Below, one piece after another: positions 3,861 through 54,558 of a stretch of 64,000 nucleotides of DNA (positions within the stretch are counted from its first letter, which is position 1; each line of letters starts with the position of its first letter). The notes beneath the pieces are model-generated. The model was given only the letters and a program-made list of their open reading frames with translations. It was not told where the DNA came from and did no database searches. The translations under genes and the position numbers were made by a program. Source of the stretch: a phage; the NCBI GenBank assembly GCA_033648345.1, contig GCA_033648345.1_4121.1; one strand, written 5' to 3'.

Positions 3861-3906
3861 ATTTTCATTGCTAGAACATAAACCAACTGAGGTAATCATA
3901 TCAAAC

Positions 3907-4164
3907 ATGGCAGAAACATTATCACTATATGCATTAGTACTGTTATTTGTCGGATTTCTTCCCGCACTTATTACAGCCATTCGTGTTGTTAAACATGAAG
4001 CTGCGTTGATTGTATGTAGTATTGGGGCGAACATTCTATTGTATTTCTTTTTAACAAATACTATTGTACTGTTTGCTTTCTTTATCATGATTCTGTGGGT
4101 ACTTGTAATTCTCGGATTCTTCATTTGGTCATTGGTTGATCCTAAGAAAAAACAGGAGAAGTGA
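3907..4164 (+). CDS. small membrane protein (85 aa)
   Basis: Hydrophobic ORF; track start 3868 (TTG) lies at the predicted transcript start so ATG 3907 chosen. Confidence 0.5.
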   Translation: MAETLSLYALVLLFVGFLPALITAIRVVKHEAALIVCSIGANILLYFFLTNTIVLFAFFIMILWVLVILGFFIWSLVDPKKKQEK

Positions 4165-7244: not shown

Positions 7245-7277
7245 GGGTTGACTTCGGTCGGCCCTTTTTGCTATAAT
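7245..7277 (+). promoter_or_regulatory. terminator-hairpin/promoter composite (PeSL-like)
   Basis: GGGTTGAC-TTCG-GTCGGCCC hairpin + T-tract; TATAAT 7272-7277. Confidence 0.6.
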
Positions 7278-7303: not shown

Positions 7304-7717
7304 ATGTTAAAAGTTATTTTCCGTTCTATCAGTTCATTACTTCTTATGATTAGTTCAGTTTGTTATGCAAATGAAGTATCTGATTTATTTGAGAAGAATT
7401 ACCCAACCGCACAAGAGATGGGTGTTTTAAAATGCAAGCTAACTTCGTACAACATCATCGGCAGTAAACTTGTACTGGAACATGAACGTAGTACACCAAT
7501 CCCTCTAGTAGAAGAAGGCAGTACCTTTAGCTTCAAGTACGGGGTGAATGTAACATCTGGTGTAATGAACAATGTTGATGCAGAGACTGGTTCAACATGG
7601 AGTACTAGCGGTAAAGATGTGTTTCATCGTATGCGTGAAAATGGTAAACTGAAGTACGTATATGAAAGTTCATTCATGAAACGTGTATTCATTATAAAAA
7701 ATTGTGTACCAGCATAA
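7304..7717 (+). CDS. secreted protein (137 aa), signal peptide
   Basis: GGAGG SD; N-terminal hydrophobic leader ending ...SSVCYA. Confidence 0.65.
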   Translation: MLKVIFRSISSLLLMISSVCYANEVSDLFEKNYPTAQEMGVLKCKLTSYNIIGSKLVLEHERSTPIPLVEEGSTFSFKYGVNVTSGVMNNVDAETGSTWSTSGKDVFHRMRENGKLKYVYESSFMKRVFIIKNCVPA

Positions 7718-7728
7718 GGAACAACATC

Positions 7729-8004
7729 ATGCGTTCATTTGAAAACTTAATCGGTAAACTTCGCTTACAAGAAATTGAAGATGATGTGAAGGAATTATCT
7801 GAAACTAAGAGTTACATTCATTTAGATGAACTGTTTATTAAGTACGGTGAGATTGGTTTTAAGTCATTATTTGTTTTTGTCATGAAGGTGCATAGTTTAA
7901 AGTACTTTGATTTGAGTTCAAAAGACGGACAACCAAATCTGTATTACATGTATTATCTTAAGAACATAGACGAAGCTAATACATTATTCTTAGAATATAT
8001 GTAG
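7729..8004 (+). CDS. hypothetical protein (91 aa)
   Basis: AAGGAA SD then ATG 7729. Confidence 0.6.
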   Translation: MRSFENLIGKLRLQEIEDDVKELSETKSYIHLDELFIKYGEIGFKSLFVFVMKVHSLKYFDLSSKDGQPNLYYMYYLKNIDEANTLFLEYM

Positions 8005-8014
8005 GGGTAAAAAA

Positions 8015-8353
8015 ATGGAACAACATTTTGAATTAATTAATAAGGTATCATTTTATGTAGTATCGTTAATTTGGGTGTATTACATGTTTTGTTACATTAT
8101 TGCATTCTTCCGATACACAACCTTGTATCAACGCATATACTACGATGCACCCATTTCATTTATGATGTTCTGTGCATGTACGTGGGGGATAATTGAAGCA
8201 CTGGTATGTGGATATAGTACTGACGAATTAAATCTCGTATCGGTGTTGACATTACTAACAATTGCTACTATGATAGCTACTGTTCCGATATTTTTGCTCT
8301 TTAAACTGCTTCATCGCATCGATGAGTGGCGTAATAAAATCCCTGAAAAGTAA
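8015..8353 (+). CDS. small membrane protein, family M member 1 (112 aa)
   Basis: 3-4 hydrophobic helices, basic C-terminal tail (…WRNKIPEK); paralogous to 8363, 8706 and 13394-15833. Confidence 0.65.
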   Translation: MEQHFELINKVSFYVVSLIWVYYMFCYIIAFFRYTTLYQRIYYDAPISFMMFCACTWGIIEALVCGYSTDELNLVSVLTLLTIATMIATVPIFLLFKLLHRIDEWRNKIPEK

Positions 8354-8362
8354 GGATTGATA

Positions 8363-8704
8363 ATGATTTTTTACACTAATGCGTTTGCTTATGCCGTTGC
8401 ATCAATCTACATTGTGTACTTCTTATTTGGTGGAGTACTGTACTTCTTTAAGTACAAAACATTGTTTAACCGAATGTATCCAAATCATCCAATTGTAGTA
8501 GTACTTTTGATTATTTCTGTTGCTCACATCATTGTAGAAACAATAATGGGTATCAGTGCAGTACATTACAGTCTAGGTACTATTGTAATTATTACTATGA
8601 TCATCGCATACATTTTAGTAATGGGTTTTGGTTTATTTGGAAATGTAGCAATGAAATTGTATAATCGAATCAAAACATTACGTGATAATCTACCGGAGCG
8701 TTGA
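8363..8704 (+). CDS. small membrane protein, family M member 2 (113 aa)
   Basis: AAGGA SD then ATG 8363; C-terminus …LRDNLPER. Confidence 0.65.
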   Translation: MIFYTNAFAYAVASIYIVYFLFGGVLYFFKYKTLFNRMYPNHPIVVVLLIISVAHIIVETIMGISAVHYSLGTIVIITMIIAYILVMGFGLFGNVAMKLYNRIKTLRDNLPER

Positions 8705-8705
8705 G

Positions 8706-9050
8706 ATGTATAATTTAAATTTAATATCATATATCATAACAACACTGTTTACTTTCTATGCCTTTGTTGGTATACTCCTACTGTACTTTAAATTTTATAA
8801 ACTTTTTGATCGTTTTTATCCGTCATTAGAACATGAATTCTTATTAGTGATGTACATATGTCTAACGTTTATGTCTACATTTTTCACTGCATCTGATGGT
8901 ATCATTGGTATTAAAGCTGAAGAACCAAATGGGAGTACGCTTGTTGCCTTTATTCTGGTAGGATTTTTCAGTACTTATATTACCTTTATTTCAGGATGTA
9001 CCGTGATTGATTATCTTGTGAAATTACGAGATAAAATGCCAAATCGATAG
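8706..9050 (+). CDS. small membrane protein, family M member 3 (114 aa)
   Basis: Start overlaps previous stop (TGAGATG); C-terminus …LRDKMPNR. Confidence 0.6.
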   Translation: MYNLNLISYIITTLFTFYAFVGILLLYFKFYKLFDRFYPSLEHEFLLVMYICLTFMSTFFTASDGIIGIKAEEPNGSTLVAFILVGFFSTYITFISGCTVIDYLVKLRDKMPNR

Positions 9051-9059
9051 GGGATTGCT

Positions 9060-9317
9060 ATGTTTGCATTGCGTAATAAAAATACAAAAGAGATTCTGTG
9101 TATCTCAACAGTATGGGATTGTGCAGGAAGTGAAATGATTCTCGAAGAAGGTTCAGGTGATTGTGTTTATGTTGTTCAGGATCGTCGCGAACTGGAATCA
9201 TTACTTGACGAATTTAATGCTGGTGGAAATCCTAAAAGTACTCAATTCCCTGAGATCAGGAATCCAGCACCACCAGGCTCTTATGAAATTCTACAACTGT
9301 GGGAGATGGATAAGTAA
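9060..9317 (+). CDS. hypothetical protein (85 aa)
   Basis: ORF; contains a Chi octamer at 9219-9226. Confidence 0.55.
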   Translation: MFALRNKNTKEILCISTVWDCAGSEMILEEGSGDCVYVVQDRRELESLLDEFNAGGNPKSTQFPEIRNPAPPGSYEILQLWEMDK

Positions 9318-9697
9318 TGCGTCAAATGCACAAAGTAACCGAGCTAAACAAGCGTCTGATTAAACAATCAATGTTTGAGGATAAAGAGTCTTACTATAAC
9401 TTCAAACGTGCTGTAGAGGCTGCTATCCACATTCAGAAGCTTAAAGATAGTGGATGTATTATTCTCGAAAATGGTTCTGACGTTGTTACTGATGACTTCA
9501 GTGTAGCGTTTGATGTTTCACCTGATGGTTCGCTATCAATGCCACGCTTAGGGACTGGTGACATGACTGTGTGGGTAGGTTTCACTATGGGGAATGTACC
9601 AGGCACGGTGTATGTAGATGATGCTGAGTTGAAAGAAAGCTTCAAAAACTTATCGCATCTTGAACCACAATACGCACATGAAATGAATTTATTTTGA
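9317..9697 (+). CDS. hypothetical protein (126 aa)
   Basis: ORF; start overlaps previous stop. Confidence 0.55.
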   Translation: MRQMHKVTELNKRLIKQSMFEDKESYYNFKRAVEAAIHIQKLKDSGCIILENGSDVVTDDFSVAFDVSPDGSLSMPRLGTGDMTVWVGFTMGNVPGTVYVDDAELKESFKNLSHLEPQYAHEMNLF

Positions 9698-9698
9698 G

Positions 9699-9758
9699 TT
9701 GACAAACTCATTCAGTACTGTATAATGTTTATCAAGGGGATGAACTTCTCATCCCCAC
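9699..9758 (+). promoter_or_regulatory. sigma70-type promoter with 5' stem-loop
   Basis: TTGACA 9699-9704, 16-nt spacer with AGTACTG, TATAAT 9721-9726, then GGGGATGA…TCATCCCC hairpin before SD. Confidence 0.6.
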
Positions 9759-9773
9759 AATCGAGGAATTGTC

Positions 9774-10328
9774 ATGATTACTTTTAAGAAAACTGCTAAC
9801 CACATCCATGAGATCTACATTAACGGTCACAAAGCTGGCCTTCTTCGTTTACTCGCCCATCATCCGAATATTACCGTATCTGATAATGAACCTAAAGATT
9901 GGCGTGTATTTTTCTTTGGAAAGTACAGTGATTTTCAAGTATCAAACCTGAAGAACATTCGTTCAGTATGCACGTTAACTGAAATTAAAGAAAAGTTAAC
10001 CAAAGCATTGAAAACTAATCCAGATAGTGTTCTTCCACCTGATAACTTTGTAGAGAAAGGATATGCCTTAGCTCATTTCAAAGATGGTACTATTCAATCT
10101 ATCAGTACTGAATATGAATATCAATGGACTGAGTACTTCACTTATGGATCGCGTAATACATTGATGGCTTCACGTAGTAAATTGGAAGAAGTACTGACTC
10201 GTATGAATGAACGCGAGCGTCAATTTTATGACAAACCAGAAATGTGGAGTTCAACTTACATTGACCGTATTGACTATGTTATTATGACTCCAATCTTTGA
10301 CACTGCTTACTATGATTCTTTGAAATAA
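9774..10328 (+). CDS. hypothetical protein (184 aa)
   Basis: ORF with GAGGA SD. Confidence 0.65.
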   Translation: MITFKKTANHIHEIYINGHKAGLLRLLAHHPNITVSDNEPKDWRVFFFGKYSDFQVSNLKNIRSVCTLTEIKEKLTKALKTNPDSVLPPDNFVEKGYALAHFKDGTIQSISTEYEYQWTEYFTYGSRNTLMASRSKLEEVLTRMNERERQFYDKPEMWSSTYIDRIDYVIMTPIFDTAYYDSLK

Positions 10329-10339
10329 GGATAACTTAT

Positions 10340-10516
10340 ATGAAACTACGTACTCGTAATCGACTGATGGATGCACTGTACCATGAACAGCTTTCACTGA
10401 ATGAAGTGAAGCGTCAGTTAATGTACACATATCTGTTACCCGCTCGCATTGCAAAACAACGTGCTAAAGAATTGCTGAAAGAAGCAATCGAGTACTGGGA
10501 ATCTGATTCGTACTAA
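10340..10516 (+). CDS. hypothetical small protein (58 aa)
   Basis: ORF below track threshold; AAGGA SD 8 nt upstream. Confidence 0.45.
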   Translation: MKLRTRNRLMDALYHEQLSLNEVKRQLMYTYLLPARIAKQRAKELLKEAIEYWESDSY

Positions 10517-10544
10517 TTGTCACGTTAATTAAGTGAGGCGATAA

Positions 10545-10796
10545 ATGAAAATTTTATTAGTTCTAATACTACTAATTGTTTTACCATTTACGTTAGTATC
10601 CCCTGAACTTGCATGGAATGTGTTTGTGTACTTACTATGTACTATTGTAGTAAATGGTATCTTGTTCTTAGTTCTATTCATAAATGGAATAGGACACGGT
10701 GGAGGATGGACCAGTACTGCTGATATTGTACATAAAACCACTATGTCTTTATTTGTAGTGTGGAATTTATTCTGGACTTGGTTTGTGTTCTTCTAA
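10545..10796 (+). CDS. small membrane protein (83 aa)
   Basis: Hydrophobic ORF with GAGG SD. Confidence 0.55.
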   Translation: MKILLVLILLIVLPFTLVSPELAWNVFVYLLCTIVVNGILFLVLFINGIGHGGGWTSTADIVHKTTMSLFVVWNLFWTWFVFF

Positions 10797-10805
10797 TTAA
10801 AAAAT

Positions 10806-11177
10806 ATGAATATAGATTTGAAAGGTGCAACCCGAACTGTCATACTCATTGGGGAATATGCTATCAAGATTCCAACCTTTAAAAGTTGGAAGCTATTCTT
10901 AACAGGGATGATAGCTAACCTCAATGAACGTTCTTGGATGCAGTACTCCAAGCGTAGTGATAGTGGTATCTGCCCTACGTTGTGGTCATCATGTACTGGA
11001 CTAGTAACTGTACAGAAACGTTGTAAGCCAGTACAACATAGGGGTTTATTTTGGGTGGAGTTGTGTGCTTTAGCATTGGATTCAGAGTTGAGTACTGACT
11101 TCTTCTATTCAGATGCGAAGCCAGAAAACTTTGGGTATCTGGGTGGTAAGTTAGTTAAACTTGATTATGGAGATTAA
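10806..11177 (+). CDS. minimal protein-kinase-like protein (123 aa)
   Basis: Motif order AIK … DAKPENFG … KLDYGD resembles kinase beta3-Lys, catalytic loop and DFG-like; ends just after DYG. Confidence 0.45.
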   Translation: MNIDLKGATRTVILIGEYAIKIPTFKSWKLFLTGMIANLNERSWMQYSKRSDSGICPTLWSSCTGLVTVQKRCKPVQHRGLFWVELCALALDSELSTDFFYSDAKPENFGYLGGKLVKLDYGD

Positions 11178-11178
11178 T

Positions 11179-11601
11179 ATGTACGCACTGTATAATAAAG
11201 AAAAGAAACAATTTGCTAAGGTTGAAAAATCGATTGATACATTTGGCATGTTTAAGTACTGTATTGTGACGGACCCATATGCTAACTTGTATTACGTTCT
11301 TGATGACGTATCAGTACTGCAACGATTGCTTGAACGTTCCAAAAGCCAATGTCAAGGTATCCATGATGGTTCAACTTATGAAACACCTGAGTGTTCCTAT
11401 GGCTATCTGGATGGGTATGAGATTGTGAAGTTGGGTGCATTGTTGATTAATGAGGAATTTATGAAACTATGTACATGTGATGATTGTGGTAAACAAATAC
11501 CAGAAAGTGAAGTATATCGTAATGAAACTGCATTCGGTGATGATGGTGACTACTGTCAGGATTGTTTTTACGAGAACCATTATGATTTTGGCGATGATTA
11601 A
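11179..11601 (+). CDS. hypothetical protein with Cys-rich C-terminus (140 aa)
   Basis: GGAG SD; C-terminal CTCDDCGK…CQDC suggests a zinc ribbon. Confidence 0.55.
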   Translation: MYALYNKEKKQFAKVEKSIDTFGMFKYCIVTDPYANLYYVLDDVSVLQRLLERSKSQCQGIHDGSTYETPECSYGYLDGYEIVKLGALLINEEFMKLCTCDDCGKQIPESEVYRNETAFGDDGDYCQDCFYENHYDFGDD

Positions 11602-11607
11602 AACAAA

Positions 11608-11640
11608 GGGTTGACTTCGGTCAGCCCTTTTTGTTATAAT
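11608..11640 (+). promoter_or_regulatory. terminator-hairpin/promoter composite (PeSL-like)
   Basis: GGGTTGAC-TTCG-GTCAGCCC hairpin + T-tract; TATAAT 11635-11640. Confidence 0.6.
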
Positions 11641-11668
11641 CATTTCATCGAAACGAGAGGATGAATAC

Positions 11669-12145
11669 ATGACACGCATTAACTTAGTACACGTTAAAGA
11701 ACTTGCTGACCAACATCTGATGGCTGAATATCGTGAACTCCCACGTGTATTTGGTGCTGTACAAAAACACGTTCAAGCACGTAAGCGTGTACGTGATTTC
11801 AAAATTAACAGTACTTACCTGTTAGGTTCAGGTCATGTAACATTCTTCTACAACAAGTTATTGTACTTACAGAAGCGTCATATTGAAATTGTTAACGAAT
11901 GTTTGCGTCGTGGTATGAAGATTCAAAACATTGAATTAAACGACATTAGCGGCTTCCCTGCTGAGTTTTGTAATGACTACGTACCATCGGAGTCAGAGAT
12001 TAAAATGTCTCGTGAGCGTTTGATTGAGAAGCTACAGATGAAGCCTACGTGGTATAAGTTTACTGATGTTGAATGTCCACAGTACGTTAAAGATATGTTG
12101 AATGAAATTGAAGAACAAATCAAAGATGAAATGAATAACTATTAA
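11669..12145 (+). CDS. denV: pyrimidine-dimer DNA glycosylase / endonuclease V (T4 DenV family)
   Basis: N-terminus MTRINL…[21 protein letters not shown]…KRVRDFKI…GHVTFFY…RPTWYK recalled as near-identical to T4 endonuclease V over most of the length. Confidence 0.93.
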
Positions 12146-12151
12146 AGGAAA

Positions 12152-12186
12152 AGGTTGACTTCGGTCAGCCATTTTTGTTATTATAG
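12152..12186 (+). promoter_or_regulatory. terminator-hairpin/promoter composite (PeSL-like)
   Basis: GGTTGAC-TTCG-GTCAGCC hairpin + T-tract, then -10-like TTATTATA. Confidence 0.55.
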
Positions 12187-12214
12187 CTCTATCGAAACGA
12201 ATGAGGATTAAGTA

Positions 12215-12472
12215 ATGATTAAATTAAAATTTGAAGGTATGCGTGATGGGAATGGTAACCTAATCATTACACGAGGTACTAAAGCAGTACGATGCTTAGA
12301 AGAACATGGTATTGAATTTACTATTCCATACGATGATATCAGGATTAAAGAGGATACGGTACTGGAATTGCCACTCACTACATTTGAAGAATTGAATGCA
12401 TTTTGTCAAACATATAATGCACTAATCACTTTCGATGAACGTAATTGTGTTATTGAATTTTTACAACACTGA
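12215..12472 (+). CDS. hypothetical protein (85 aa)
   Basis: ORF with GAGGA SD. Confidence 0.6.
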   Translation: MIKLKFEGMRDGNGNLIITRGTKAVRCLEEHGIEFTIPYDDIRIKEDTVLELPLTTFEELNAFCQTYNALITFDERNCVIEFLQH

Positions 12473-12491
12473 TGATTAAGTAATAAAGAAA

Positions 12492-12524
12492 GGGTTGACA
12501 CTAGTCAGCCCTTTTTGCTATAAT
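12492..12524 (+). promoter_or_regulatory. terminator-hairpin/promoter composite (PeSL-like, loop variant)
   Basis: GGGTTGACA-CTA-GTCAGCCC hairpin + T-tract; TATAAT 12519-12524. Confidence 0.55.
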
Positions 12525-12552
12525 CATTTCATCAACTCAAGAGGATAAAGAC

Positions 12553-13326
12553 ATGACCCGTACAGAGAAAGCAATCCAAATCGAAAAGAACTTCAACAGC
12601 ATGATGGCAGCTTTGGAATGTTTACTTGATACCCAAGCTAATTCAATCAATTCCCTGATTGTATCTGGTAAAGGTGGTGTTGGTAAAACTTACAACGTTG
12701 ACCAGCGTTTACAGAAAGCTGATGATAACTTTGAAATCGACTACAAAAAGATCAGCGGTAAAGTAACCACTATGGGTTTGTACGAAGCACTGTATCGTTC
12801 ACGTCATGCCGCTTCAGTACTGTTACTTGATGACGTTGATATCTTCTCTGACGAGACTAATATTGATTTGCTTAAAGCTGTGTTGGATACGTCAGAGAAG
12901 CGTGTAGTTTCTTACGCGACTTCTGCTAAGTACCTGGAACAGCAGGGTATCCCTAAGCAGTTTGAATTCCGTGGTAAAGTAATCTTTCTGACTAACAAAA
13001 ACCTGTCACAGATTGCTAAAGGTAAAAGCAGCTTAGCACCACACATCGATGCACTGATCACTCGTAGTATCTTTGTTGACCTGCAACTGTTCACCAACGA
13101 AGAAGTGATGATTCACATTGAGAACATCATGAACAAAACTAACATCCTTGAAAACAATGGTGTTAACAAAAATGGTTGTAAAGCAATCCTGAATTGGATG
13201 CTGAACAACGAAGAACGTTTGCGTAGTCCATCACTGCGTATGCCAGTACTGATCGCTGGTCTGTATAATAAATTCCCATACGATTGGGAATCAATGGCAG
13301 AGAATATGTTCCTTGAGAAAATTTAA
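12553..13326 (+). CDS. P-loop NTPase with deviant Walker A (257 aa)
   Basis: Walker A SGKGGVGKT and Walker B-like VLLLDDVD. Confidence 0.75.
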   Translation: MTRTEKAIQIEKNFNSMMAALECLLDTQANSINSLIVSGKGGVGKTYNVDQRLQKADDNFEIDYKKISGKVTTMGLYEALYRSRHAASVLLLDDVDIFSDETNIDLLKAVLDTSEKRVVSYATSAKYLEQQGIPKQFEFRGKVIFLTNKNLSQIAKGKSSLAPHIDALITRSIFVDLQLFTNEEVMIHIENIMNKTNILENNGVNKNGCKAILNWMLNNEERLRSPSLRMPVLIAGLYNKFPYDWESMAENMFLEKI

Positions 13327-13393
13327 TTACATGTATTGACAGCACTACACTATGGTAGTACTATAACTTAATATTCACCACCGGAGATACGAT

Positions 13394-13732
13394 ATGCTTG
13401 AGTTTTTTAATTCAGATACAATGCTTAGTATTACTTTGATTTATCTGTTTGGTTTTTTCTTTTATCATGCACTAGTTGTAGTACTATGGTATTTTAAAAA
13501 GAAAATCGTTTTCAAACTGTATCCTGATGGAAACATTTCACTACTTCTTTTCACTATTATCCAAGGTATGTTTGCAATTGTTGGTCTTATCGCACACTTA
13601 ATTTATTGTGCTAATCCACAGTTGAACTCAATATCACAATATATTGTATTCCTTGGATTACTAATTTGGGTGCTGATATACTTGTTTAATATCATCATTA
13701 ATGGTCGAGCAAAAATTCGTGGGGACTTCTAA
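13394..13732 (+). CDS. small membrane protein, family M member 4 (112 aa)
   Basis: GGAGA SD; 3-4 TM segments. Confidence 0.65.
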   Translation: MLEFFNSDTMLSITLIYLFGFFFYHALVVVLWYFKKKIVFKLYPDGNISLLLFTIIQGMFAIVGLIAHLIYCANPQLNSISQYIVFLGLLIWVLIYLFNIIINGRAKIRGDF

Positions 13733-14079
13733 TGTTTGAATCTTATCTTGAGTTTTTAAAGAGTAGTTCTGTTGCACATTCAATTGCAGGGATTATTCTA
13801 ACAGGTTATGTAACATTTTGGGTAGTTATGTTTCTAGGATGGTATTTTAAACGACAATTCTATAAGCGTAATGGTGAAGATTTTATGAATTCTGTTATTA
13901 ATCAATCGTTGTTTGCATCAACATTGATAGCATGTATTGTAGCAACACTCACAGGAAAGGTACTGCCAGCATTCTCCGCAGTTTACGGTACATTGGGTAT
14001 GATATGTGTAGTTTTTTACTTGATCATTAAACTTTGTTGTGTTATGATTGACCTTCGAAACAAGATACCGGAGGAATGA
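13732..14079 (+). CDS. small membrane protein, family M member 5 (115 aa)
   Basis: Start overlaps previous stop; C-terminus …LRNKIPEE. Confidence 0.65.
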   Translation: MFESYLEFLKSSSVAHSIAGIILTGYVTFWVVMFLGWYFKRQFYKRNGEDFMNSVINQSLFASTLIACIVATLTGKVLPAFSAVYGTLGMICVVFYLIIKLCCVMIDLRNKIPEE

Positions 14080-14414
14080 TGGAATATTTTTTACACTTAC
14101 TGCCGTGGTATATGAAAGTTAGTACTATGTACTATATTCTTAGTGCTGGATTCTACTTTCTGATGTGGTTCTTCAAACGACCAATTTCAGTATTCATCTC
14201 TGATAACATGCTGCAATTAAAATTACACGCATGGTTTTTTATGGCGATGTTTATGCCTATTATTCACTACTCAATGATTAGTAGAGGTTTACGTTCTAAT
14301 GGTGAACCAATTATATTAGTATTCTATTGGGGTTCAACTATTGCATATGTAAGTTTGTTGTTGATCCCAGCCGTTCATAAATTACGTGCTAAAGTTCCTG
14401 ATGCGAGGTACTAA
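14076..14414 (+). CDS. small membrane protein, family M member 6 (112 aa)
   Basis: ATGA overlap; GGAGG SD; C-terminus …LRAKVPDARY. Confidence 0.65.
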   Translation: MMEYFLHLLPWYMKVSTMYYILSAGFYFLMWFFKRPISVFISDNMLQLKLHAWFFMAMFMPIIHYSMISRGLRSNGEPIILVFYWGSTIAYVSLLLIPAVHKLRAKVPDARY

Positions 14415-14728
14415 TGGATATCGTAACATTGATTTACACGCTTTATTCATTCTATTTTATTATGTGTTGGGTTGGATTTTTATTTGTATTGAAGATGTTT
14501 GATTATGTTGAAAAACAGATAAAAGAATTTTGTATTCCTTTTATTGGGTCAACCATAATTAGTATTACTTGTTTGTATTATTTGGTATGTGATCCACCTG
14601 TTAATACAGCAATGATTGACTTCATGTTATTACCAACAACTGTTATTTTTTTATGTAGTCTGATGCCACCGATTAGTCGTGGGCTAACCGAATTTAGACG
14701 CAATCAAAAGCGTAAACGAGGGATGTGA
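14414..14728 (+). CDS. small membrane protein, family M member 7 (104 aa)
   Basis: Overlapping start; basic C-terminal tail. Confidence 0.6.
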   Translation: MDIVTLIYTLYSFYFIMCWVGFLFVLKMFDYVEKQIKEFCIPFIGSTIISITCLYYLVCDPPVNTAMIDFMLLPTTVIFLCSLMPPISRGLTEFRRNQKRKRGM

Positions 14729-15096
14729 TGGAAATTGCACTTATTATATTAACTGCTATGTTGTTTATTAGTACAATTGTTATTATTGGCAAGTTCTTCT
14801 GTGTATCCTTCTTGGAAACCGTATACGATGAAATTGCTGATGATTATGAATTACATGCGGGATTTTTTACTACGTATTGGATTAGTTTATTACTACTTAT
14901 CACTGTATGGATTTTACATATATTCAAATGGGGTATGGTAGATGGTGATCCAGTACTGGCAATTATCTGTGTAGTGTTTGGTCTACTCGGTGGTGCTGTC
15001 CATAATCTGATGGTAATTTGGCAAACCGTACAATATGTATTAGTTCCACATTTTCAGAGAATGCATCAAAGCATCAAATACCGCAAACGAGGATAA
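14728..15096 (+). CDS. small membrane protein, family M member 8 (122 aa)
   Basis: ATG 14728 directly after previous stop (track start 14725 is GTG). Confidence 0.6.
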   Translation: MEIALIILTAMLFISTIVIIGKFFCVSFLETVYDEIADDYELHAGFFTTYWISLLLLITVWILHIFKWGMVDGDPVLAIICVVFGLLGGAVHNLMVIWQTVQYVLVPHFQRMHQSIKYRKRG

Positions 15097-15097
15097 C

Positions 15098-15460
15098 ATG
15101 AATAATATTGAATTATCTTTTATTGGTCAATTAATGGTAATGGCGTATACATTTATCTTCTCACTGAATGCATTCGTGTGCATTGGGAAGTACTTCCATA
15201 AGCGACCATTATCAAATATATATGATGTAATACAAAGGAGATATAGTCCAGCATATACTGTGTTGAGTACAGCATTCAATTTTGGTTTTATTCTAATGCT
15301 GGTTGCATTATTAACATCGAGTTTAAATTTTATAACATTTGGTATTATGGTATGTTCACTAACACTGAGTGTGGTTATTCTCTGTGCATCCGTTGAGTTG
15401 ATGGCGTGGATGTATTATAAGATTTCCGAAATCCATGACCGTTTAGGTAAGAGGAACTAA
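15098..15460 (+). CDS. small membrane protein, family M member 9 (120 aa)
   Basis: Hydrophobic ORF; C-terminus …RLGKRN. Confidence 0.6.
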   Translation: MNNIELSFIGQLMVMAYTFIFSLNAFVCIGKYFHKRPLSNIYDVIQRRYSPAYTVLSTAFNFGFILMLVALLTSSLNFITFGIMVCSLTLSVVILCASVELMAWMYYKISEIHDRLGKRN

Positions 15461-15461
15461 A

Positions 15462-15833
15462 ATGAGTTATCGTGAAATATTTTCGATCATTACTATTATT
15501 GTTTTTAGTTTAGGTTCTTTGGTGTGGTTATTGTATTACTTCTGTGTAACCCCAGTATATAATATGCTAAATTCAGTACGCTCTGATGTTGGTATTGTTT
15601 CTTTTATTATCTTCATGGCATATTATATGCTAAGTATCACAGGTTTGGTTTTGGTTGTTATCTTTGACCTTGGACCGAATCAAGATGGTATGGAGGTGTG
15701 GGAATTGATAACGATGTTTGCATGTATGATACCTGCATTTGGTGTATGTGCTGGTGTATTTTATGGGTTATGTAAAGGTGTGAACTACTTAAAAAATATC
15801 CACAATACTATTCGTAAAAAACGTATGTTATAA
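15462..15833 (+). CDS. small membrane protein, family M member 10 (123 aa)
   Basis: GAGGAA SD; C-terminus …IRKKRML. Confidence 0.6.
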   Translation: MSYREIFSIITIIVFSLGSLVWLLYYFCVTPVYNMLNSVRSDVGIVSFIIFMAYYMLSITGLVLVVIFDLGPNQDGMEVWELITMFACMIPAFGVCAGVFYGLCKGVNYLKNIHNTIRKKRML

Positions 15834-15839
15834 TAAAAA

Positions 15840-15866
15840 TCCAGTACTATTATAGTACTGGATTAA
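15840..15866. terminator. bidirectional hairpin terminator between convergent genes
   Basis: TCCAGTACT-ATTAT-AGTACTGGA hairpin flanked by A/T tracts. Confidence 0.55.
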
Positions 15867-15868
15867 TT

Positions 15869-16993
15869 TTAATTATCTAAGCCACCAATTACACTGAACT
15901 GTGTGGTAACGTCTGAATTATTATCTATGTAAGTTCTTCTACCAACATAATATAGTTGTCCTTTAGCTTGAATAAAAGTTACGGTCCCTGTATTGAATGT
16001 TATAATATCATTGTATGTAATGTCAGGTGGTAGTGCTGCTGATAACGCAGTAACTTTACTTAATGCAGCACTAGCACTACCATTTATACCAGCAGCAATA
16101 CTACCAGTACCATAGAACTTATTATCTTTACCAATGAATACGTTGGCTGATGCTTGTGTAGCTGATGTTATTGCCTTACCAATTTGGAATGCGGTTCCTA
16201 TGGTGTATGGTGTGCTCCTGGCAGCGTCTATGCTTTGTGTATATCCATCCCCTAGCTGACCATTAACTTTGTCACCACATGAGTATAGAGTACCATTGTG
16301 GCTGTATATGATCCCACGGTTAGAGAAGCTAACAGCTTCTGCATTAGTCCATACTGGTGCGGTGTATGAGTTTACACGACTAGCGGTAGTTCCTAGACCT
16401 AGTATACCATATGTGTTATCACCACATCCAAACCATTGTCCAGAACTGTTTTGATAGAACACTGAACGTTCTGTTGATTCCATGCGTACAGCATCCACAG
16501 CACCACTTTTAACGAACGAAGTTGATGAGGATGTAGTACCAGTACCCAATGCACCATAAGTGTTTGTACCAATCGCATATATTGATCCTAGTGGTGTCAT
16601 AACACGTATGCAGTTATATCCCAATTGAACTTTACATTCAAATAGGTTGTCCCATATTTCAGGAACAGCAGAAAATAAATTTGTAATTTCGAACCATGAT
16701 GTTGTCGAACCAGTTAATCCTATACTGCTTTTGTTTCCTAAAATGAAAACAGTTTTGTCCTTCTTAATTATCCATGATGATAGGAAACCTATCTCACAGC
16801 TATGAACATTTGATTCTATTTGGGTAATATAATACTTAACTGTGTTATCACCCATGAATGCCGCAGCACCGGATGCAAAAAGGTTTCCAGTTTGTTTATT
16901 TAAAATGTAGTTATTGTTTCCATATACACTAACATCATAAGAACTTTCTTGTTTTTCGTTCCCATAATCAAATAACAATACGAAAGGTAACAT
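15869..16993 (-). CDS. RCC1-like beta-propeller repeat protein, array member 15 (374 aa)
   Basis: Starts MLPFVLLFDYGN; repeated […YxxGxNxxGxLGxG] blade-type motifs. Confidence 0.75.
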   Translation of the reverse strand: MLPFVLLFDYGNEKQESSYDVSVYGNNNYILNKQTGNLFASGAAAFMGDNTVKYYITQIESNVHSCEIGFLSSWIIKKDKTVFILGNKSSIGLTGSTTSWFEITNLFSAVPEIWDNLFECKVQLGYNCIRVMTPLGSIYAIGTNTYGALGTGTTSSSTSFVKSGAVDAVRMESTERSVFYQNSSGQWFGCGDNTYGILGLGTTASRVNSYTAPVWTNAEAVSFSNRGIIYSHNGTLYSCGDKVNGQLGDGYTQSIDAARSTPYTIGTAFQIGKAITSATQASANVFIGKDNKFYGTGSIAAGINGSASAALSKVTALSAALPPDITYNDIITFNTGTVTFIQAKGQLYYVGRRTYIDNNSDVTTQFSVIGGLDN

Positions 16994-17753: not shown

Positions 17754-18890
17754 TTAAACTGGTGGAGAATTATATGGCTCAAATTTATAAGTTGTCGTAG
17801 CAGTACCAGCAATGGCGTTGTTAGCTAGTATGTACATAGTCCTGTAGTCGATTACCACTACAGTAATACTACCACCAAAAGCATAGTCTGTTATGTTATT
17901 AGTGTTGAATGGTAAATTAGATGAACTGGTCCATGTATTAGCTGTTGTGCTATTTGTACCATTGGAATAACCTACACTAGATGCACCAGTTGTCCATAAG
18001 TTTCCATCATTGAACAAGGAGACATGGTTAGTTGTATATGATTTATTAGGTATAGAACTATCAATTGGTGTATTCCAAACTTTAGTAACCCATGTTGTAA
18101 CTGCTGTATTATTAGTAACGCCATTACCTAATGAACCATTTATTGGTATACCTCTTATATAAGAAGTGTTAGTACTAGGGTCAACATATCCAAATGTATA
18201 TGTATCAAATGCAAATTGAAAACAATCAGAACTCGGTAATGTGTACAGTAATGTATATGAAGACGTGTTTATTGATGAATTTGTACCGTTCACGCCTTGG
18301 TATAAAATACCACTAGCCAATATTTGATTATTATTTTTTGTTATAGTGTTCATTGATGGATATGTTTTCACATCACGCACATCATTAGTCACATATGTTT
18401 GTGTTGATAATGCAACGTTACTACCATTACCTATAACCCCTGTATTTGCACCACTCCCATAAAGTGAACCATCATTCAAAAGAACCATTGTAACATTACC
18501 ATTTCCCGTAATTGTTTTAATATTACTAACATCCACCGCAGCAAATACAGTTGATGTTAAATCAGTGAAACGTGTATAATGTGATGTTGTGCCATTGATT
18601 GGTGTCGCAAAACCAGAATACAATATTCTATTTTCTTTGGTAATAAGGAATGTTCCAGTAACACCATTTGAATGGATATCAACAATATTATCTCCCATTA
18701 ATACCCAATCACTTACGAATGTTGTTGTACCAGTACCTAACCCATGTGTAGTGTTGTAACCACGTCCATACACTCTACCATCACTGAGTAATGTTACCAC
18801 ACATTGACCACCACCACCAAGGATAACTTTTTGGATAGTACTCTTTACTTTTATATTCCCGTACTTAACCATTCTTGCAAAAGGTAACAT
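17754..18890 (-). CDS. RCC1-like beta-propeller repeat protein, array member 14 (378 aa)
   Basis: Starts MLPFARMVKYGN; RCC1-type motifs e.g. YGRGYNTTHGLGTG. Confidence 0.75.
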   Translation of the reverse strand: MLPFARMVKYGNIKVKSTIQKVILGGGGQCVVTLLSDGRVYGRGYNTTHGLGTGTTTFVSDWVLMGDNIVDIHSNGVTGTFLITKENRILYSGFATPINGTTSHYTRFTDLTSTVFAAVDVSNIKTITGNGNVTMVLLNDGSLYGSGANTGVIGNGSNVALSTQTYVTNDVRDVKTYPSMNTITKNNNQILASGILYQGVNGTNSSINTSSYTLLYTLPSSDCFQFAFDTYTFGYVDPSTNTSYIRGIPINGSLGNGVTNNTAVTTWVTKVWNTPIDSSIPNKSYTTNHVSLFNDGNLWTTGASSVGYSNGTNSTTANTWTSSSNLPFNTNNITDYAFGGSITVVVIDYRTMYILANNAIAGTATTTYKFEPYNSPPV

Positions 18891-54522: not shown

Positions 54523-54558
54523 GGGATTGACTCCGGTCAGTCCCTTTGCTATTATATA
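54523..54558 (+). promoter_or_regulatory. terminator-hairpin/promoter composite (PeSL-like)
   Basis: GGGATTGAC-TCCG-GTCAGTCCC hairpin + TTTGCTATTATATA. Confidence 0.6.

Follow-up and report, generated by a model that had tools for sequence, protein, structure and literature searches.

Two clusters of small genes

The stretch of phage DNA analysed here, called the window throughout, is 64,000 nucleotides (nt) long and belongs to contig GCA_033648345.1_4121.1 of NCBI GenBank assembly GCA_033648345.1. It matches the genus Asteriusvirus, jumbo myophages of Escherichia coli that are also known as the 121Q/PBECO4 group and informally as 'Rak2-like', with a nucleotide identity of up to about 97-98%; CMSTMSU, EC.P1 and Ecwhy_1 are the nearest nucleotide matches. 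Many small genes lie on the + strand from position 1 to ~16,000, beyond which the coding strand switches. The subject of this work is a set of ten of them, m1 to m10, which stand in two clusters. The original prediction, made by a model from the letters and a list of the open reading frames (ORFs), had placed ten ORFs for proteins of 104-123 amino acids (aa) at 8015-9050 (cluster 1) and 13394-15833 (cluster 2, here also called the array), and all ten were found there on the + strand. In the list below, E is the E-value of each protein against a family profile from which its own orthologous group was left out, and dN/dS is the ratio of nonsynonymous to synonymous substitution rates.

8015-8353, + strand: m1, 112 aa, three transmembrane helices, tail ...WRNKIPEK, E 3.7e-8, PHROG 19285, dN/dS 0.17 against 121Q
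8357-8704, + strand: m2, 115 aa from TTG 8357, likelier 113 aa from ATG 8363, three helices, tail ...LRDNLPER, E 5.9e-5
8682-9050, + strand: m3, 122 aa from GTG 8682, likelier 114 aa from ATG 8706, three helices, tail ...LRDKMPNR, E 2.3e-8
13394-13732, + strand: m4, 112 aa, three transmembrane helices, tail ...GRAKIRGDF, E 6.4e-7
13732-14079, + strand: m5, 115 aa, three transmembrane helices, tail ...LRNKIPEE, E 4.4e-10
14076-14414, + strand: m6, 112 aa, three aromatic-rich helices, tail ...LRAKVPDARY, E 1.9e-4
14414-14728, + strand: m7, 104 aa, three transmembrane helices, tail ...FRRNQKRKRGM, E 1.9e-6
14725-15096, + strand: m8, 123 aa from GTG 14725, likelier 122 aa from ATG 14728, three helices, tail ...MHQSIKYRKRG, E 9.7e-9, dN/dS 0.10
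15098-15460, + strand: m9, 120 aa, three transmembrane helices, tail ...IHDRLGKRN, E 7.7e-9
15462-15833, + strand: m10, 123 aa, three transmembrane helices, tail ...IHNTIRKKRML, E 1.6e-9, last gene of the array

The Shine-Dalgarno spacing and the annotation of 121Q suggest that m2, m3 and m8 start at ATG 8363, ATG 8706 and ATG 14728, respectively; for m3, the 121Q record gives the ortholog gp209 the shorter form. The reported overlap of starts and stops was also seen. With the listed starts, m4/m5 and m6/m7 overlap by 1 nt and m5/m6 and m7/m8 by 4 nt; m8/m9 and m9/m10 are spaced by 1 nt. Chance ORFs were ruled out by dN/dS values below 0.5 and by the conservation of the genes across the clade.

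The ten proteins form one superfamily

Pairwise BLASTP among the ten proteins showed a clear relationship only for m1-m2-m3 and for m4-m5. Since this left the question of a single family unsettled, profile methods were used, for which the equivalent regions of eleven related phages were collected. Single-linkage clustering with phmmer at E<=1e-3 brought nine of the ten window members into one component of 77 proteins, and m6 and its orthologs formed a separate component of six. HHalign linked the orthologous groups with probabilities of 40-98% overall: 90% for m1-3/m4, 93% for m5/m6, 77% for m8/m9, 76% for m8/m10 and 43% for m5 and the GAP32-type group. As controls, four further families of small membrane proteins encoded by the same phages were compared, and these reached at most 4% against everything.

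Iterated profile searches seeded with m5 and with m8 converged on the identical 85 of 728 six-frame ORFs, which included all ten window members but no ORF of the minus strand and none of the other small membrane ORFs. The sole further hit was Munch 8462-8791, a gene within the array of that phage. The window has 364 ORFs of 40 aa or more. Run against these, the family profile found exactly the ten, with E-values from 4e-22 to 7e-18, and no other ORF at E<1; the E-values are inflated because the profile contains the ten themselves. The independent test was the leave-one-orthogroup-out run, in which every window member was recovered with E 4e-10 to 2e-4 and the best non-array ORF had 0.21. The most divergent members were m7 and m6. 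These comparisons establish the common ancestry of the ten at the profile level, where they are also mutually alignable, and the single family that had been proposed was thereby borne out.

In the databases the family is scattered over at least eight PHROGs (19285, 19454, 19046, 27396, 33258, 26405, 27618 and 16874). Eight of the ten proteins match seven PHROG models at 1e-46 to 1e-60; m3 matched 19285 weakly (1e-3), and m9 had no match below E 0.01. Scans of the ten with Pfam, NCBIfam and PADLOC matched no family and gave scattered sub-threshold hits to unrelated membrane families. With 123 family members, Pfam returned 151 different families and no recurrent signal, and fold searches in BFVD and PDB yielded family members or generic helix bundles only.

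Predicted topology and conserved residues

Transmembrane helices were predicted in all ten proteins by Kyte-Doolittle hydropathy, and for m5 and m10 by AlphaFold2. Three to four helices had been expected for each protein. Three were found in each of the ten by hydropathy, and the fourth was not. The hydropathy signal is weaker in m6, owing to the many aromatic residues of its helices. The AlphaFold2 model of m5 (pLDDT, the predicted local distance difference test, 71.7) has helices at 13-38, 55-74 and 80-111 and an extra short N-terminal helix, and that of m10 (pLDDT 77.4) has helices at 3-26, 42-69 and 79-122. In both models, a short helix lies in loop 1 and the long helix 3 extends into the C-terminal tail. 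The mean number of lysines and arginines per segment, taken over 85 family members, was 0.38 for the N-terminus, 2.8 for loop 1, 0.59 for loop 2 and 4.86 for the tail. By the positive-inside rule this distribution predicts a periplasmic N-terminus and a cytoplasmic location of loop 1 and of the C-terminal tail (N-out/C-in). The anatomy, the single family and the topology, taken together, are held with high confidence.

Three signatures recur in the family. G-W-x-F-(K/R) stands at the cytoplasmic end of helix 1, with the Phe present in 76% of members, and a Tyr or Phe follows in loop 1 about ten residues past GWxF. Helix 3 is followed by a hydrophobic stripe that repeats about every four residues, then by Arg (61%) or His (29%) and a K/R-R-(G) end. 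In the columns of the tail, R/H reaches 90% and the last two conserved positions are K/R in 80% and 92%. All conserved residues are on the predicted cytoplasmic face, and the extension of helix 3 appears amphipathic. The tail had been described as LR.K.P(E/D), which fits about half of the members and is not general. A proline followed by an acidic residue (IPE, LPE or VPD) occurs in m1, m2, m5 and m6; m3 ends with MPNR and m4 with RAKIRGDF, and the tails of m7-m10 read (R/H)x4-6(K/R)(K/R)(G/N/M).

Paralog groups were 14-19% identical over helix 1, loop 1 and the tail, against 10-11% over the hairpin from helix 2 to helix 3, which is the most variable part. The same ranking was obtained within orthologous groups (38-48% versus 21-27%). 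The N-terminal segment showed 35% identity, which is inflated because the start Met is shared.

The shared elements on one face, together with a heptad-like hydrophobic stripe of the tail that prolongs helix 3, would suit subunits of a heteromeric inner-membrane complex (a channel, scaffold or platform) that assemble through their tails and the GWxF face, maybe with the NrdC.10-like ATPase encoded upstream of the array. We regard such a complex as possible but rather unlikely; further points that bear on it are given with the gene junctions and with the distribution.

The layout also recalls class I holins. The class I holin lambda S105 has ~105 aa, three transmembrane helices, an N-out/C-in topology and a basic cytoplasmic C-terminus, and the family proteins, with 104-123 aa, three helices, the same predicted topology and a basic cytoplasmic tail, would suit it. 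They could then act as holin-like or antiholin proteins that build up in the inner membrane and set off or time lysis for an endolysin of the signal-anchor-release (SAR) type, a role that we consider very improbable. Against it counts that the usual partners of SAR endolysins are pinholins with two helices. No holin family appeared in the Pfam hits of the ten (E<=1) or among the 25 commonest families over the 123 members, and no lysis-related Pfam domain was present in the neighbouring genes scanned. The endolysin of the group, 121Q gp532, has an N-terminal transmembrane domain (PMC5259590), but it is encoded far from the family genes gp207-209 and gp224-232. In favour of a holin, the word 'holin' is absent from the main text of PMC5259590 and PMC7247149, and no holin is named there.

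Tail codons and translational coupling

The Shine-Dalgarno sequence of each gene lies inside the last codons of the preceding gene, as in ...CCG GAG GAA TGA before m6, ...AAA CGA GGA TAA before m9 and ...AAG AGG AAC TAA before m10. In cluster 1, the Shine-Dalgarno GGAG of m3 is within the final codons of m2. Together with the overlaps of 1-4 nt or the gaps of 1 nt in cluster 2, this points to translational coupling. Such tight coupling would favour stoichiometric co-production of the proteins, as a heteromeric complex would need.

Since P-E-E and K-R-G both spell the GGAG/GAGG core, the extreme C-terminal conservation is partly a consequence of this dual coding. Dual coding is not the whole explanation, because the basic tail is kept where a gene has no downstream partner, as in m10 and in the genes that close the arrays of RaK2 and GAP32, and because the conserved R/H lies upstream of the Shine-Dalgarno codons.

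Early-type promoters

The promoters and other elements around the two clusters are as follows.

7246-7277, + strand: promoter built into a hairpin (GGTTGACTTCGGTC...TATAAT), scan 11/12, extended -10 TG; it heads the unit 7304-9697, which contains cluster 1
12495-12524, + strand: sigma-70-type promoter ahead of the NrdC.10-like gene, a perfect TTGACA-18-TATAAT with TG
12553-13326, + strand: T4 NrdC.10-like P-loop/AAA ATPase gene, ~41% identity to T4 nrdC.10 by tblastn, weak Pfam AAA_16, PHROG 1250
13336-13364, + strand: promoter of the sigma-70 type, TTGACA-17-TACTAT, within the 67 nt that separate the NrdC.10-like gene from m4; a GGAGA Shine-Dalgarno comes after it
15838-15864, both strands: predicted hairpin terminator between m10 and a convergent RCC1-like gene
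235, 3829, 4485, 6564, 7246, 11609, 12153 and 50522, + strand: exact copies of GGTTGACTTCGGTC, with variants at 54525, 57803 and 60254, + strand

No terminator was predicted between the promoter at 12495 and cluster 2. The GGTTGACTTCGGTC cassette, whose hairpin contains the -35 hexamer, is present in eight exact copies in the window, all on the + strand, against 0.2 expected. Downstream of the three copies read, there is TATAAT (7246 and 11609) or TATTAT (12153). Cassettes of this promoter-stem-loop kind have been described in T4-type phages, where hypervariable early regions that carry them are typical plastic accessory regions. The two clusters resemble such regions in lying amid small early-type genes, in the hairpin-promoter cassette and in their sharp variation between relatives. 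They differ in that one family is amplified here to 7-10 copies and kept across genera, and T4 has no member beside nrdC.10.

The T4-type late-promoter octamer TATAAATA occurs once in the window (3397), not near either cluster, whereas 13.3 occurrences were expected and 100 of 100 shuffles had at least one. This is strong avoidance. Late genes here, for instance those of the minus-strand block, therefore do not use exactly this motif.

The promoters speak against a holin. Unlike class I holins, the family lies outside a lysis cassette, is present in ten paralogs per genome behind sigma-70-type early promoters and matches no holin family. With no lysis genes nearby, the holin-like option had the least support of the three roles (holin-like, exclusion, membrane remodelling) that had been suggested. 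Early-type promoters and a predicted membrane location would also be expected of host-takeover or membrane-remodelling factors that act on permeability, transport, energetics or membrane expansion, with the paralogs largely redundant and drifting. A related PHROG, 16874, bears the annotation 'membrane protein' in the category 'moron, auxiliary metabolic gene and host takeover'. We think this role unlikely, and the variation described below argues against it.

Distribution and variation of the family

The original prediction had advised a search for the family in related phages, and it was found clade-wide in Rak2-like jumbo phages and is not peculiar to the window. The phages with an array are the following.

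Asteriusvirus: 121Q, A4, TH47, phAPEC6
Alcyoneusvirus: RaK2, KP13-7
Mimasvirus: GAP32, XbC2
Eneladusvirus: Serratia BF
Unclassified: Salmonella Munch, Erwinia Kaldavass

Wherever a sampled relative has an array, it stands directly downstream of the NrdC.10 homolog. This fixed place, seen in all nine of 121Q, A4, RaK2, KP13-7, Serratia BF, GAP32, XbC2, Munch and Kaldavass, would fit a heteromeric complex. The arrays share with that of the window the superfamily, the position after the NrdC.10 homolog, the size, the three helices and the basic tail. In the window, cluster 2 begins 68 nt past the NrdC.10-like gene, and cluster 1 is a second site 3.5 kilobases (kb) upstream of that gene. The copy number in the sampled loci is 0 in XaC1, 5 in Serratia BF, 6 in GAP32, 8 in RaK2, 8 in A4 and 10 in both 121Q and the window; of these copies, cluster 1 accounts for 1-3. 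The first 50 kb of the 121Q genome, scanned for members outside the two clusters, contained none.

The counterparts in public records are 121Q gp207-209 and gp224-232, RaK2 ORF309-316, GAP32_522/523/525/526/526A/527 and Serratia BF gp389 and gp384-387. Six copies are labelled 'putative membrane protein, 3 transmembrane domains' in the GAP32 record, and most other records have 'hypothetical'. In phAPEC6 (MK817115.1), 1244-1669 and 10502-10840 of the sampled locus are family members (E ~1e-20) without an annotated CDS (coding sequence).

When 1.84 billion cluster representatives were searched exhaustively with the profile, there were 96 hits, all of 81-131 aa and matched nearly end-to-end. The 85 among them that were newly retrieved all have a basic tail of the same type. 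Ten distant hits were checked; three were on contigs of 355-371 kb, which is jumbo-phage size, and seven on contigs of 3.5-31 kb. Word-indexed homolog searches returned ~50 proteins. Where a source is named, it is a jumbo phage or an assembly of E. coli, and the contigs reach ~310-384 kb at the longest. tblastn with m2 gave matches in Asteriusvirus records only. By homology search the family is confined to Rak2-like jumbo myophages, where it appears to have expanded by tandem duplication.

One-to-one counterparts in RaK2, in the same order, were found for m4, m6, m7, m8 and m10. In the phmmer clusters at E<=1e-8, m4 grouped with RaK2 9924-10268 and m6 with RaK2 10270-10605, and these were taken as orthologs. 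The paralogs therefore split before the genera did. This retention of order between Asteriusvirus and Alcyoneusvirus is a further point for a heteromeric complex. Against 121Q, dN/dS was 0.10-0.42, indicating purifying selection.

Within the genus the family is variable. In comparison with phage A4, the family members are 29-65% identical, whereas denV and three other neighbours are 92-99% identical. For m10 there are at least four discrete classes within one genus, with ~98%, 64%, 58% and 40% identity to the window, and the class with the lowest identity differs from the window as much as the RaK2 ortholog does. The match to m7 is in two pieces in 121Q (gp228/229) and in CMSTMSU, which suggests a frameshift. 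Two deeply divergent alleles of NrdC.10 (~59% aa identity) occur among Asteriusvirus genomes that are otherwise ~97% identical here. The window has the allele of WPEC3, UE-S1 and ph0011, not that of 121Q. In TH47, NrdC.10 is 59% identical to that of the window, yet m7 is 98% and m10 97% identical and the other array tails are (nearly) identical. NrdC.10 and the array alleles therefore assort independently.

Several of these results argue against subunits of one complex: the copy number of 0-10 (1-3 in cluster 1), the split m7 in 121Q and CMSTMSU, which is consistent with loss of a copy, and the independent assortment in TH47. In addition, XaC1, PA5oct and T4 carry NrdC.10 without an adjoining array; no family member adjoins NrdC.10 in Xanthomonas XaC1, Pseudomonas PA5oct or T4. 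The NrdC.10-like ATPase is a conserved upstream neighbour of the array and, from its context, only a candidate partner. The variation also weighs against host takeover by redundant, drifting copies. Such copies would be expected to be lost, yet the dN/dS values are low and orthologs persist across genera. Moreover, deeply divergent, discrete alleles in near-identical genomes point to a specific, contested interaction and not to a generic membrane effect. The pattern resembles that of genes in phage-phage or phage-host conflict.

A possible role in membrane protection

The orthologs of the family in phAPEC6 (gp012c-017c and gp028c-029c) are missing from the 62-protein virion proteome (PMC7247149), and a virion component was rejected on this ground. 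The account that we favour overall is an early accessory inner-membrane family that protects the infected cell, which we consider plausible without being probable. As its specific role we tentatively propose superinfection exclusion or counter-defence, because of the early-type promoters, the non-virion status, the variable copy number, the deep allelic classes and the purifying selection. Exclusion had been one of the three roles suggested at the outset, and of these it fits the data best, unproven as it is.

In this protective role, host RNA polymerase would transcribe the array early and the genes would be translated in coupled sets. The proteins would work as accessories of the inner membrane, with the conserved cytoplasmic face as a common anchoring or assembly module and with the variable hairpin of helix 2, loop 2 and helix 3 giving each paralog an intramembrane target of its own. 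The slowly replicating infected cell would thus be guarded at its membrane, either by blocking the entry of competitor-phage genomes or by neutralising host defences that act at the membrane.

A precedent for such a mechanism is Imm of phage T4. Imm is reported to be an early small membrane protein that binds the incoming tape-measure protein and blocks genome entry (bioRxiv 10.64898/2026.03.06.709160). It offers a model of the way in which diversified transmembrane hairpins could work. The family resembles it as a set of small inner-membrane proteins of a large lytic myophage with predicted early expression. T4 Imm, the product of a single-copy gene, is shorter and crosses the membrane with two helices. 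The family differs in its three helices and its up to ten copies, and it matched no Pfam family consistently at E<=1, any Imm family in Pfam included. The array might go further and be a coupled 'library' of intramembrane binders, in which the GWxF and R/H-KRG module is constant and each hairpin is directed to a competitor channel or a defence effector, an idea that we put forward as rather doubtful. If it were true, the 'library' would provide a broad and evolvable protection of the membrane, as a multi-specificity counterpart of T4 Imm in the form of a gene family.

Several points weigh against membrane protection. No sequence or fold similarity to Imm or to another exclusion protein was found in Pfam, PHROG, NCBIfam, PADLOC, BFVD or PDB. 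Known exclusion genes are usually single and not in arrays of 7-10. Orthologs in a kept order across genera and a shared tail would be explained by paralogs that assemble into one complex no less well than by independent variants of specificity. The absence from the virion proteome counts for little, as mass spectrometry often misses membrane proteins. The early timing is predicted from the promoter consensus; promoter-like matches in the region numbered 53 versus 50.9 in shuffled sequence, and weight was therefore placed only on the few perfect or near-perfect intergenic sites. Finally, the low identity of helices 2 and 3 may partly reflect alignment uncertainty, since their lengths vary.

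Literature searches on 121Q/PBECO4, phAPEC6, Asteriusvirus, nrdC.10 and jumbo-phage exclusion gave no functional or expression data for the family genes, and no published statement of a single family, a shared cytoplasmic motif or a role was found. The CBB supplements held nothing on these genes. New here are the unification of the superfamily, the cytoplasmic signature, the fixed site after nrdC.10, the dual coding of Shine-Dalgarno and tail, and the hot spot of variation. The array is an uncharacterised instance of accessory small membrane proteins of phages and not a new kind of system.

For phAPEC6, 83% of the genes have no assigned function (PMC7247149). Rak2-like phages such as 121Q, PBECO4, RaK2 and GAP32 are considered for therapy while most of their genes are functionally unassigned. 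Up to ten 'hypothetical' genes per genome and at least eight database families are now joined in one superfamily with a predicted topology, a signature and a genomic address. If the proteins do serve in exclusion or counter-defence, they would affect the outcome of co-infections, the design of cocktails and the host range. The genes are short and easily cloned, and these ideas are directly testable.

Neighbouring genes and other small membrane ORFs

The convergent gene beyond the terminator (15869-16993, - strand) encodes RCC1 repeats, and its equivalents in relatives are annotated as 'DNA condensation protein' or 'regulator of chromosome condensation'. Those named 'DNA condensation proteins' that phAPEC6 encodes beside its array (gp003-gp010) were identified in the virion by mass spectrometry (PMC7247149).

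In several relatives a DUF1190 gene follows just past the array, in locus coordinates at 18086-18637 in A4, 12054-12650 in RaK2, 11049-11672 in GAP32 and 11650-12315 in Kaldavass. RaK2 additionally has a ClpP-like peptidase gene after the array. Such envelope-type genes would suit a role of the family in host takeover. In the window the terminator follows immediately on the array, and a DUF1190 gene is missing there.

The array is interrupted by a gene of ~255-266 aa in GAP32 (8464-9228), Serratia BF (8118-8918), Kaldavass (8817-9596) and XbC2 (9402-10184), again in locus coordinates. The interrupting gene of GAP32 had no Pfam match and matched PHROG 27654 (unknown function); the array of the window is without such a gene.

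Three other small ORFs on the + strand of the window have 2-3 predicted helices, at 2005-2241 (78 aa), 3868-4164 (98 aa) and 10545-10796 (83 aa). They are outside the family, as the family profile gave no hit to them at E<1. The 83-aa ORF at 10545-10796 is 96-99% conserved in 121Q and A4.

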